Made by a program: the position numbers and the translations under genes. 64,000 nucleotides of DNA from Glaucostegus cemiculus. Taxonomy: Eukaryota. The stretch lies in assembly GCA_976551045.1 (NCBI GenBank), contig CDPCPM010000022.1:14756001-14820000 (forward strand). Direction: 5' to 3'. Below, in pieces: positions 14,973 through 19,235 of the stretch; the stretch's first letter is position 1; every line of letters begins with the position of its first letter. The notes beneath the pieces are model-generated. The model was given only the letters and a program-made list of their open reading frames with translations. It was not told the DNA's origin and made no database searches.

Positions 14973-15206
14973 TGTAGCGACTCACGATGTCGGCATCGAA
15001 ACGCCGTCGGCCATCGCGGGGAAACGCGCAAGTTCCCGCGATAGTGCCGGAAGGCGGGACTTCCGGCGGGAGGATGACGTGACTTCCACCGGCCATGTTT
15101 TTACCTAGTCCGTGTTGTGTGCAGCTCGTGTAGACTCATTAAAACGTGTTCAACTTCATCTCCGTGTCCTGGCCTTCTTTCAAGTAGCACCCTGCTGGCT
15201 GCTACA
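14973..15206 (+). repeat. 5' LTR (234 bp)
   Basis: TGTAGC...GCTACA; 7 substitutions vs the 3' LTR by eye; ATTAAA at 15138-15143. Confidence 0.97.
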
Positions 15207-15208
15207 TT

Positions 15209-15221
15209 TGGTGACCCCGAC
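15209..15221 (+). promoter_or_regulatory. Primer binding site, tRNA-Trp
   Basis: TGGTGACCCCGAC, 2 nt after the LTR, equals the first 13 nt of the classical tRNA-Trp PBS (TGGTGACCCCGACGTGAT). Confidence 0.9.
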
Positions 15222-15244
15222 AATTCCAGACGGCATCTGGAATC

Positions 15245-15937
15245 ATGGATGCTGCCTCCAACAACGCCGTGGCACTCAAGCTCCCGCTTTTCTGGACCTC
15301 GCAGCCTCAAGTCTGGTTCGAACAGGCCGAGGCCCAGTTCAGTGTCAAAGGCATCGTAGCCGACGCCACAAAGTATTACTACGTGGTCGGCGCCCTCGAC
15401 CAGGACACAGCCGGTCGCATCATCGATTTCCTATGCCAGCCACCGGCGGAGGACAGGTATGTCCGTCTCAAGGCTCTCCTCCTGCGCACGTTCGGCCTTT
15501 CCCTCAGCGACCGAGCCACGAGGCTCCTCCATATGGACGGCCTAGGCGACCGCAAGCCCTCCGAGTTGATGGACGAGATGCTGGCACTCATGGACGGCCA
15601 TCGGCCATGTTTCCTGTTCCGGCAGCTATTCCTCGATCAACTCCCGGAGGATATGCGCCCCCTCCTCGCCGGCGGAGATTTCAGCGACCCGCGTGCCCTC
15701 GCGGCCACAGCGGATGTCATTTGGTGCAGTCGGCCGCGAGGAGTGGCCTCCGCCTGCGTAGCGGCGGCCTCGCGACCTCCGGCTAAGGTTCCGAAACCCA
15801 AGCCGTCAGGGCCGGTAAAGGACAACGATACAGGCCCGGGGGACTACTGTTTCTACCATAAGAGGTGGGGGCCGAATGCGCGCCGCTGCCGGCCGCCGTG
15901 TTCTTTCCCGGGAAACGCCGAGGCCGGCCGTCATTAG
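15245..15937 (+). CDS. gag: Gag protein (230 aa)
   Basis: ATG just after the [22 protein letters not shown]-terminus; C-terminal [18 protein letters not shown] (CHCC zinc-binding motif). Confidence 0.92.
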
Positions 15938-18900
15938 TGGCTTCGACGGCTGGCCAGCGTGACTGCCTGCTTTTTCTTTGGGACCAGCTTACCGGGCGGC
16001 GTTTCCTGGTGGATACGGGGGCCGAAATCAGCGTCCTTCCCCCCTCCAGCATGGATGCCCGCACCGCGGTCAAAGGCCCTGACCTCACCGCTGCGAACGG
16101 CTCTACCATCCGCACCTATGGCCAGCGCACCGTCCCTTTACGTTTTGGGACCAGTTCGTTTACCTGGACTTTCACTATAGCGGCAGTATCGCAGCCACTG
16201 CTAGGGGCGGATTTCCTGCGCGCCAACAGCTTGCTGGTCGACCTGAAGGGCCGGCGTTTGGTCCATGCTGAGACGTTCCAAAGCTACCAGCTCGGGAATG
16301 CCCGGTCACCTGCCCCCCACCTTGACTCTGTTACGCTCTCCGACGACGAGTTTGCTAAGGTGTTGGCGGAGTTTCCTTCCATTATTACCCCGCAATTCTC
16401 CGCTGCAGTCCCCAAGCACGGCGTGCAGCATTACATCACCACACAGGGACCTCCGCTCCACGCCCGTGCCCGCAGGCTCCCGCCCAACAAGCTCCGCCTC
16501 GCCAAGGAGGAGTTTCGCAGGATGGAGGAGTTAGGAATCATTCGCCGTTCCGACAGCCCGTGGGCATCCCCGCTCCACATGGTGCCCAAAGCAGCGGGGG
16601 GCTGGAGACCCTGTGGAGACTACAGGAGGCTCAATGATGCCACGACTGCTGACAGGTACCCTGTGCCCCACATCCAGGATTTCACCGCGAACCTCCATGG
16701 GGCAACCATTTTCTCTAAGATTGATCTGGTCCGGGGATATCATCAGATCCCTGTTCACCCCGACGACGTGCCCAAAACAGCCCTCATCACCCCCTTTGGG
16801 TTGTTCGAGTTCCTCCGAATGCCTTTCGGCCTGAAGAACGCCGCCCAGACTTTTCAACGGCTCATGGACTCGGTGAGCAGGGGCCTCGATTTCTCTTTTG
16901 TGTACCTGGATGACATCCTGGTAGCCAGCAAGTCCCGCAAGGAGCACTCAGCCCATCTCTGTCAGCTCTACCAGCGCTTGAGCGACCACGGGTTGGTGAT
17001 CAATTTGGCAAAATGTCAGTTTGGACTGCGGGAGATCGACTTCTTAGGCCACAGGGTGAACCAGCATGGCGCCGCCCCGCTACCCGACAAGGTGCAGGCC
17101 GTCCTCCAGTTTCCCAAGCCTTACACTGTCAAGGGCCTGCAAGAATTCGTGGGAATGGTGAACTTCTACCACCGTTTTGTGCCCGCAGCAGCCCGCATCA
17201 TGCGGCCTTTGTTCGGGCTCATGGCCGGCAAGGCCAAGGATGTTGTTTGGGACGCGGAGGCCTCAGCAGCTTTCAATCAGGCTAAGGAGGCACTGGCCAA
17301 GGCAACACTTTTGGTTCACCCAAGAGTCGACGTCCCCACAGCGCTCACTGTTGACGCCTCTGACACGGCGGTCGGTGGGGTTTTGGAACAACTCGTTGAG
17401 GGCCAGTGGCAGCCGCTCGCTTTTTTCAGCCGGCATTTGCGGCCGCCAGAAGTCCGGTACAGCGTTTTTGATAGGGAGCTGCTGGCTCTTTACCTGGCTG
17501 TCCGCCATTTCCGTTATTTCCTTGAGGGCAGGTACTTCACCATCTACACGGACCACAAGCCCCTCACGTTTGCCCTGGCTAAGGCATCGGACCCGTGGTC
17601 GGCTCGGCAGCAACGGCACCTCTCCTTCATTTCGGAGTTTTCCACCGACATCCGCCACATCGCTGGGAAGTGCAATGTGGTCGCTGACACGCTGTCCCGC
17701 CCCCACATCCATTCAGCGACCACCCCAGCCACGGGCATCGACTACACGGCGCTGGCACAAGCGCAACAGGCAGACGAAGAGATCCCAGCATACCGCACCG
17801 CGCTCTCGGGACTCCGGCTGGAAGATGTTCCTGTTGGCCCTACGGCGATCCGGCTCCTGTGTGACACATCTACTGGCAGGCCCCGGCCGGTGGTGCCGGC
17901 AGCATGGAGACGACAGGTTTTCGACGCCCTGCATGGCCTGGCCCACCCGTCCATCAGGTCGACTATCAGGATGGTGGCAGAGAAATTCGTGTGGCATGGT
18001 CTGCGCAAGCAGGTGGGGCACTGGGCCAGAACCTGCGTGCACTGTCAGACGGCCAAGGTCCAGCGGCACGTGAAGGCTCCCCTCCAGCATTTTCAGCCAA
18101 CGCTTGGCAGGTTCCAGCACATCCACGTGGACATCGTCGGCCCTCTGCCGGTTTCCCGGGACGCCAGGTACATTTTCACTGTGGTCGACAGGTTCACCAG
18201 GTGGCCAGAGGCAGTGCCGCTGGCTGACACGTCCACCGCTTCCTGTGCCAGGGCCCTCATTGCCCACTGGATTGCCCGGTTTGGCCTTCCAGCGGACGTT
18301 ACCTCCGACCGGGGGGCGCAGTTCACATCCGGCTTGTGGACGGCACTGGCGCAGCTCCTGGGTTCCCACCTGCATCACACCGCGGCATACCACCCACAGG
18401 CCAATGGTTTGGTGGAGCGTTTCCACCGGCACCTCAAGTCCGCCCTGATGGCTCGCCTGCAGGGGCCGAACTGGATGGACGAGCTCCCCTGGGTCCTGCT
18501 GGGTATCCGTACGGCCCCCAAGGAAGATTTGGGCACCTCATCAGCCGAGCTGGTCTACAGTTCCCCCCTCACGGTACCAGGCGAGTTCGTACCTGGGGCT
18601 CAGGACCCGGCAGGGACCCCGGCAGAGGTGTTAGCTAAGCTGCGGGCCAGGGTGGGGACCTTGGCACCGATCCCGGCCTCCAGGCACGGCACAGCGCCTT
18701 CTTTCGTTCCGAAGGACCTCCTGGACTGTGAGTACGTTTTCATCCGCCGCGGTGCACATGGGTCGCCCCTGCAGAAGCCGTACGAGGGGCCTTTCCGGGT
18801 GGTCCGGCGCAATGGTTCCACGTACATCATCGAGGTTGGGGGTCGTCAACAGACTTTCACGGTGGATCGCCTGAAGCCGGCGCATCTGGACATTGCACTC

Positions 18901-19137
18901 CCGGTTACGGTGCCTTCGCCACCCCGGCGAGGTCGGCCTCCCAAGCTGGGCAGTCGGGTTGCTGGCCCCGCGCCTCCGCTGGGCGTTTCTGGGGGGGGTG
19001 GTGTAGCGACTCACGATGTCGGCATCGAAACGCCGTCGGCTGTCGCGGGGAAACGCGTGAGTTCCCGCGATAGTGCCGGGAGGCGGGACTTCCGGCGGGA
19101 GGATGACGTGACTTCCGTCGGCCATGTTTTTACCTAG
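15865..19137 (+). CDS. pol: Pol polyprotein (protease, RT, RNase H, integrase); probably entered by frameshift near 15916 rather than at the listed start
   Basis: [10 protein letters not shown] protease; RMPFGLKNA and YLDDIL RT; VDASD and TDHKPL RNase H; H-x3-H...[27 protein letters not shown] integrase; PYEGPF (GPY/F); no stops or frameshifts. Confidence 0.96.
15910..15955 (+). promoter_or_regulatory. Programmed -1 ribosomal frameshift signal
   Basis: G_GGA_AAC at 15910-15916 in the gag frame; 5-nt spacer; 11-bp stem GGCCGGCCGTC (15922-15932) / GACGGCTGGCC (15945-15955); pol is in the -1 frame. Confidence 0.85.
18991..19001 (+). promoter_or_regulatory. Polypurine tract
   Basis: GGGGGGGGTGG directly before the 3' LTR. 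Confidence 0.85.
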
Positions 19138-19235
19138 TCCGTGTTGTGTGCAGCTCGTGTAGACTCATTAAAACGTGTTCAACTTCATCTCCGTGTCCTG
19201 GCCTTCTTTCAAGTAGCACCCTGCTGGCTGCTACA
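19002..19235 (+). repeat. 3' LTR (234 bp)
   Basis: Direct repeat of 14973-15206. Confidence 0.97.

Follow-up and report, generated by a model that had tools for sequence, protein, structure and literature searches.

The 64,000-nucleotide stretch of the genome of the ray Glaucostegus cemiculus analyzed here (contig CDPCPM010000022.1, positions 14,756,001 to 14,820,000; hereafter, the window) carries on its plus strand, at positions 14973 to 19235, a 4,263-bp Ty3/Gypsy long terminal repeat (LTR) retrotransposon that is far richer in GC and CpG than the surrounding DNA. The question raised by this locus is whether the contrast, which in a sequence-only reading made horizontal transfer seem worth testing, marks a recent arrival, or whether the element belongs to a family long established in its host. 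The evidence presented below argues for the latter, with a probability of roughly 0.85: the element is a full-length CsRn1-type copy, and its family, which numbers about a thousand copies, is long resident and has replicated in successive subfamilies inside the host genome under purifying selection.

Family size, subfamilies, and age

The 24-base junction between the 5′ LTR and the primer binding site (PBS) of the element has 1,107 exact matches in the 2.85-Gb host genome, and a control pattern has none. Two sets of copies were compared, namely 40 further junctions, the first ones by genomic position (genome-order sample), and 20 copies chosen as the closest to the element copy (nearest set); L041 (rearranged), L083 (incomplete sequence), and four distant copies were left out of the LTR counts. 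Two full LTRs of the same family are present in 35 of the 40 genome-order copies, with a median of 17 differences per pair. The CpG observed-to-expected ratio (o/e) of this sample is 0.79, 395 of its 601 LTR differences are of the CpG type, and both reading frames are open in 0/35 copies. The nearest set (19 of 20 copies with two LTRs) shows a median of 2 LTR differences, three identical pairs among the 19, a CpG o/e of 0.87, and both frames open in 11/19. A perfect 4-bp target duplication flanks 49 of the 54 other two-LTR copies (18/19 in the nearest set and 31/35 in genome order), and a search that favors intact copies found Pol stop-free in 40 of 42 scored matches. The description of a young, possibly active family, made from the sequence alone, thus holds for a young branch but not for the family overall. 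This branch, to judge from its open frames and identical LTRs, is probably still active or was so recently. The element copy itself is young but not new, as its LTRs differ at seven sites (five of them CpG-type transitions by inspection), and it is not among the youngest.

The copies form a ladder of subfamilies that are 99, 92 to 94, and about 87% identical to the element copy, and 4 of the 40 genome-order copies belong to a more distant subfamily at 86 to 88%. A DNA tree of 41 near-full copies, from which L040 (a duplicate insertion) and copies shorter than 4,100 bp were omitted, consists of an old star with end branches of 3 to 5%, two intermediates, a young clade that includes the element copy (0.9%), and a youngest group (0.1 to 0.5%). 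Young and old copies are told apart by 115 pol sites, of which 80 are third positions. The ratio of nonsynonymous to synonymous rates (dN/dS) for non-CpG pol changes is 0.14 to 0.23 for shared changes and 0.36 to 0.66 for private ones, in line with the purifying selection on retrotransposons within vertebrate hosts that is described in PMC7070016. The non-CpG LTR divergence of the old copies is about 3%. With the mutation rate of 7e-10 per generation reported for the epaulette shark (PMC10587355), this places them very roughly at 2e7 generations, a figure that carries another species' rate, a tenfold interval, and LTR distances inflated by recombinant copies.

Several observations concern individual copies. 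In the distant subfamily (L051, L053, L055, and L067), it is the 3′ half of the LTRs that has diverged. Many copies have lost large stretches of their interior but keep intact LTRs and target duplications, as seen in L031, L057, L058, L060, L063, L068, L072, L077-L079, and L090. L034 and L040 have identical flanks on two contigs, one insertion being present twice, and the pairs L105/L106 and L108/L109 of a second family (family B, see below) are likewise alike; these are probably duplicated haplotypes or assembly segments, and copy counts may be somewhat inflated. Among 15 of the 232 joints in public contigs, none skips the element, which says nothing on polymorphism. The listed sequencing runs are two DNA runs of a single sample, with no RNA run among them.

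Base composition of the family

The GC content of the element is 0.614 and its CpG o/e is 0.85, against 0.38 to 0.40 and 0.18 to 0.23, respectively, in the flanks, so that the excess first seen in the sequence is real. Along the path from old to young copies (with the intermediate L054 and L059 left out of the CpG balance), 31 CpG columns are found only in the young copies and 33 only in the old ones, and 68 AT-to-GC differences stand against 73 GC-to-AT differences. Gains and losses are therefore balanced, with no drift toward the composition of the host, and the contrast with the flanks is no mark of foreign origin. In the 261 shared CpG columns, CG is kept in 96.5% of cases in young copies versus 78.5% in old copies; this loss is decay after insertion.

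Family B, a second CsRn1-type family of the same genome, is also rich in GC (0.57) and CpG (o/e of 0.65 to 0.72), and in the region spanning reverse transcriptase (RT) and RNase H its CpG o/e (0.77 to 0.81) exceeds that of the element copy (0.73). Metagenome relatives, measured at 15 of 77 loci, have a median GC of 0.52, a CpG o/e of 0.95, and a median GC at third codon positions (GC3) of 0.50, for which the comparable element values are a GC of 0.59 and a GC3 of 0.72. Composition was consequently discarded as evidence of transfer, and with it the earlier suggestion, in view of the CpG and GC balance, the richness of family B, and the lower GC of the metagenome relatives. The GC and CpG richness would rather reflect the equilibrium of a lineage that keeps replicating, set against host DNA that is old and methylated.

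Relatives and phylogeny

Family B (L101-L112, e.g., C10:16569700-16574400) was retrieved with a Hypanus Gag query. It measures 4.38 kb and has 289-bp LTRs with identities of 89 to 99% between them, and its PBS and its frameshift signal, GGGAAAC with a hairpin, are those of the element family. Its Gag is 70 to 74% identical to the Gag proteins of Pristis, Hypanus, and Mobula and 53% identical to that of the element. The likeness to named ray proteins fits a ray host, and a search with mitochondrial COX1 gave no match.

Among the best 120 of 5,372 Pol matches the maximum identity is 71%, and the top cluster (P0001) holds proteins of Petrolisthes porcelain crabs. Pol identity to the element copy is 71.5% for this cluster, 71.2% for family B, and 70.4% for a protein of the skate Rhinoraja (P0004). 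The best 120 of 321 Gag matches reach 67% over the full length, and 116 of them share the CHCC motif; those listed under an animal name come from Pristis, Hypanus, Mobula, Trichuris, Petrolisthes, and Portunus. For RT-RNase H, identity peaks at 75% among the best 120 of 5,107 matches (220 to 702 amino acids [aa]); named teleosts and sea slugs lie between 63 and 70%. No near-identical element was found in a distant host among the matches listed, the best values being 71% for Pol, 79% for RT-RNase H, and 73% for DNA over 594 nucleotides (nt), and none of the 77 metagenome loci exceeds 73% DNA identity over ≥200 nt.

The nearest Pol relatives are found among ray elements without a family name, represented by family B, Rhinoraja Pol, and the Gag proteins of Pristis (P0135), Hypanus (P0137), and Mobula (P0140), which share the CHCC motif. 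They differ from the element in having only 53 to 56% Gag and 70 to 71% Pol identity to it and, in family B, longer LTRs and a lower CpG content. The decapod elements (Petrolisthes cluster P0001 and Portunus P0239) reach 71% in Pol and 73% in the N-terminal part of Gag but form a well-supported clade of their own, and their grouping with the element is rejected (see below). The Portunus match was dismissed as a close relative because it spans only the conserved N-terminal 146 aa of Gag, where other matches reach 76%.

Whipworm relatives show 66% Pol identity to the element copy. Elements of the whipworm Trichuris (P0103, P0136, and cluster members) share 66 to 70% Pol identity with those of crabs and rays, and their patchy distribution hints at transfers long ago within this subclade. 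In Hypanus, a protein that carries the annotation of an RNF185 isoform (P0153) joins a RING domain to a whole CsRn1-type Gag; it may reflect either exonisation of an insertion or faulty annotation.

In a FastTree phylogeny of 123 Pol rows, the element groups with family B (support of 100), then with the skate protein (97), then with the crab cluster, and then with the whipworm sequences; IQ-TREE on 20 of these rows supports the pairing of the element and family B at 100/99. Approximately unbiased (AU) tests on whole Pol reject a pairing of the element with the crab cluster (p = 1.9e-5), whipworm (p = 7.6e-5), and tapeworm (p = 0.03). A ray clade is not rejected, and the tree constrained to contain it scores 3.7 log units above the unconstrained one. 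In an RT-RNase H tree of 44 rows, teleost elements make up a separate clade (100/99) and the ray sequences fall together (91/83), amid elements of crabs, other invertebrates, and unnamed hosts. A single clade of ray and teleost sequences is rejected with these rows (p-AU = 0.00021), whereas pairings with whipworm (p-AU = 0.10) and tapeworm (p-AU = 0.16) are not. A quick Gag tree leaves the placement of the element open among ray, crab, and whipworm sequences. The element therefore follows the rays and not the jawed vertebrates as a whole, a pattern compatible both with a single ancient transfer and with ancient paralogy followed by loss.

Structure of the element

The element is bounded by two 234-bp LTRs (positions 14973 to 15206 and 19002 to 19235) with TGT...ACA termini. 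The 4-bp target duplications found at other copies are represented here by ATGG (positions 14969 to 14972) on the left and TTGG (positions 19236 to 19239) on the right, and this mismatch means that one base was altered since insertion or was miscopied. The statement that all cis signals are intact accordingly fails for the target duplication. The PBS (TGGTGACCCCGA, positions 15209 to 15220) starts two bases past the 5′ LTR, is of the tRNA-Trp type, and fits the TGGTGAG/CCCCGT/A pattern of PMC2582038; no tRNA genes were found within the 64-kb window. A G-rich polypurine tract (positions 18991 to 19001) precedes the 3′ LTR, and an identical tract lies ahead of the 3′ LTRs of other copies.

Both reading frames are open, in agreement with the earlier claim. 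The gag frame (positions 15245 to 15937) encodes 230 aa with an N-terminal DUF7041 domain, for which an ESM Atlas search returned only DUF7041 clusters, and a C-x2-H-x9-C-x3-C (CHCC) motif at positions 15848 to 15901. The pol frame (positions 15862 to 19137), at −1 relative to gag, spans 1,091 aa from stop to stop with no internal stop. It shows the Ty3/Gypsy order of protease, RT, RNase H, and integrase, with the protease DTG motif at position 16012, the RT YLDD motif at 16903, the RNase H DAS motif at 17353, and, in the integrase, HHCC at 17932, D-D-E at 18127/18304/18406, and GPF, of the GPY/F type, at 18787. An env gene and a chromodomain are absent, and there is no space for a third open reading frame ahead of the 3′ LTR. 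The pol frame runs stop-free through the polypurine tract and 136 bases into the 3′ LTR (positions 19002 to 19137).

A −1 frameshift signal is predicted at positions 15910 to 15955, where GGGAAAC (positions 15910 to 15916) lies in the gag frame just past the CHCC motif and is followed, 5 nt downstream, by an 11-bp hairpin. The signal was compared across 21 distinct elements that show both motifs and a sufficient length of control sequence, namely the element copy, two family B copies, and 18 of 77 metagenome loci. GGGAAAC lies in the gag frame in 21/21, and in 20/21 the 48 nt downstream of it fold within the best tenth of controls from the same element. The hairpin alone is not significant against shuffled sequence (z = −0.77), so that its support comes from conservation across elements and not from the shuffle test.

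With these features, the element is predicted to follow the standard LTR retrotransposon cycle. Transcription would start in the 5′ LTR and Gag would be translated from the transcript, while a predicted −1 ribosomal frameshift at GGGAAAC and the hairpin would yield Gag-Pol. Reverse transcription would presumably be primed by tRNA-Trp, and integration would generate the 4-bp duplication. Present activity of the cycle is likewise a prediction.

Host gene context

The element lies in antisense orientation in an intron of SCHIP1, in agreement with what had been read from the sequence. A large exon on the minus strand (positions 44882 to 45445), which we assign to SCHIP1 by its motifs, has a GT donor at its end and is in frame with the first of five minus-strand exons that match Pfam SCHIP-1_C and lie 38 to 88 kb left of the window. 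The intron holding the element starts at position 44881 and extends about 83 kb leftwards beyond the window edge, which leaves 26 kb between the element and the donor site and 53 kb between it and the acceptor site. There is no sign of an effect on SCHIP1.

Elsewhere in the window, positions 48000 to 52000, which lie 3 to 6 kb upstream of the large SCHIP1 exon, are rich in CpG (o/e of 0.7 to 0.8) and are likely a promoter island. Two elements resembling miniature inverted-repeat transposable elements (positions 14483 to 14648 and 20471 to 20851) are of high copy number and occur at very high depth in public contigs; the 67-bp arms of their long inverted ends are complementary at 75% and 97%. 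Decayed fragments of long interspersed nuclear elements, presumably CR1/L2-like and L1-like to judge from their motifs, are found at positions 10505 to 12287, 27673 to 29366, 53168 to 53530, and 61425 to 63999.

Comparison with known CsRn1 elements

The element is provisionally assigned to the CsRn1 type on features (CHCC Gag, Trp-type PBS, 4-bp duplication, and protein motifs), the trees being built from search matches. PMC2582038 defines the features of the clade, and the CHCC Gag and the PBS, to which the sequence-only reading had already drawn attention, match its definitions. CsRn1, PwRn1, and AgCR1-14, as described there, are alike in CHCC, tRNA-Trp PBS, 4-bp target duplication, and the DTG/YxDD/DAS/HHCC/DDE/GPF series, as well as in the absence of env and chromodomain, in a length of 4.2 to 6.2 kb, and, for most AgCR elements, in the −1 overlap of the frames. 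In contrast, gag and pol are fused in CsRn1 and PwRn1, the present host is a vertebrate, and the present LTRs end in ACA, compared to AAA or ATA in the mosquito and fluke set.

PMC2582038 calls the clade invertebrate specific, and the sequence-only reading named trematodes and insects as the groups it was described from. Such a limit is contradicted by reports from medaka, stickleback, Tetraodon, and Takifugu (PMC4746887 and PMC11117352) and from molluscs (PMC6238403). CsRn1 is also reported from tapeworms (PMC12471100), and a table of frog elements in PMC4131045 includes CsRn1, with presence marks that are illegible. The teleost CsRN1 families (PMC11117352 and PMC4746887) are similar to the present one, with lengths of 4,337 and 4,552 bp, LTRs of 174 and 302 bp, and a Pol of about 1,060 aa. 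Named teleost proteins, which are equated with these families by assumption, are 65 to 70% identical to the element in RT-RNase H and fall into a clade of their own. Gypsy/DIRS elements make up 2.5 to 3.7% of five ray genomes (bioRxiv 10.64898/2026.10.27.761883). No report of CsRn1 in sharks or other cartilaginous fishes was found in the literature covered, outside which lie Repbase, subscription journals, and supplements, where the family may carry a Gypsy number.

Origin of the family

Long residence of the family leaves room for different origins. The best-surviving proposal, which is compatible with long residence and which we hold tentatively at somewhat short of an even chance, is one ancient entry from an aquatic invertebrate lineage, with decapod elements as the nearest named, into early rays, followed by a vertical split into the element family, family B, and the skate family. 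The rejected clade of rays and teleosts and the separate teleost clade speak for it, as does the grouping of the ray sequences next to the crab cluster in FastTree. Moreover, crab-ray and ray-ray distances are equal, which gives a modest tilt to ancient transfer. Retrotransposon exchange between crustaceans and fishes has been proposed before (PMC5055719). No shark-named protein appears among the 360 rows listed, a weak point, as only about 20 of the 360 carry an animal name. On the other side, the support for the ray clade and for its sister group is moderate, most tree neighbors are without a host name, synonymous divergence is probably saturated at about 70% DNA identity, and rejection of a vertebrate clade is equally explained by paralogy and loss. 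In a more specific version, an aquatic invertebrate (probably a crustacean) would have passed the lineage once to the ancestor that rays share with skates, independently of teleost CsRn1; at least three families would have arisen from it, one of them still amplifying, with an invertebrate-like CpG content at equilibrium in a methylated vertebrate genome. This version is plausible but less likely than not.

Vertical inheritance alone, from paralogous lineages of old bilaterian age that were lost patchily and never transferred, is rather unlikely. It would account for the wide occurrence of CsRn1 in teleosts, molluscs, cestodes, and insects, for the coexistence of several paralogous families in one genome, and for purifying selection within the host, as in PMC7070016 and in the dN/dS values above. 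Nevertheless, it requires crab and ray Pol to have remained 71% identical ever since protostomes and deuterostomes separated while, within one ray genome, two families drifted equally far apart.

Certain results weigh against long residence and leave some room for recent acquisition from a parasite or another aquatic invertebrate, with the composition contrast as a donor signature. The crab cluster is as identical to the element in Pol as family B or the skate protein, and the CpG o/e of whole young copies (0.87) exceeds that of family B (0.65 to 0.72), which could mean a later arrival. The searched collections are incomplete and contain few named elements of sharks, rays, and parasites, which means that a close donor could be missing. 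The strong contrast with the flanks, the 73% Portunus Gag fragment, the whipworm relatives at 66%, and the RT-RNase H tests point the same way. Recent acquisition is nonetheless improbable given the graded older subfamilies in the host, the equal gains and losses of CpG and GC, the less GC-rich metagenome relatives, and the ceiling of 79% that identity to outside relatives reaches, even for RT-RNase H, among the matches listed. The idea of a parasite donor, in particular, fails on whole Pol, where whipworm and tapeworm are rejected along with the crab, though RT-RNase H by itself would have allowed it.

An assembly artefact or contamination, for which the mismatched target duplication might be cited, is refuted by the more than 1,000 junctions on many large contigs, by copies with target duplications of their own, and by public contigs, possibly from the same sample as the assembly, that cover the unique flanks without differences as well as the element.

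Residence of a CsRn1-type family in this ray extends the known hosts of CsRn1 to cartilaginous fishes, as far as the literature found reaches, and shows that the GC and CpG contrast at this locus should not be taken as evidence for transfer. If the ancient entry is true, it would provide a dated transfer of an LTR element from an invertebrate to elasmobranchs, a group little covered by transfer surveys. The family is well sampled, long lived, and equipped with a young branch, and could supply a set of markers for use in a ray.

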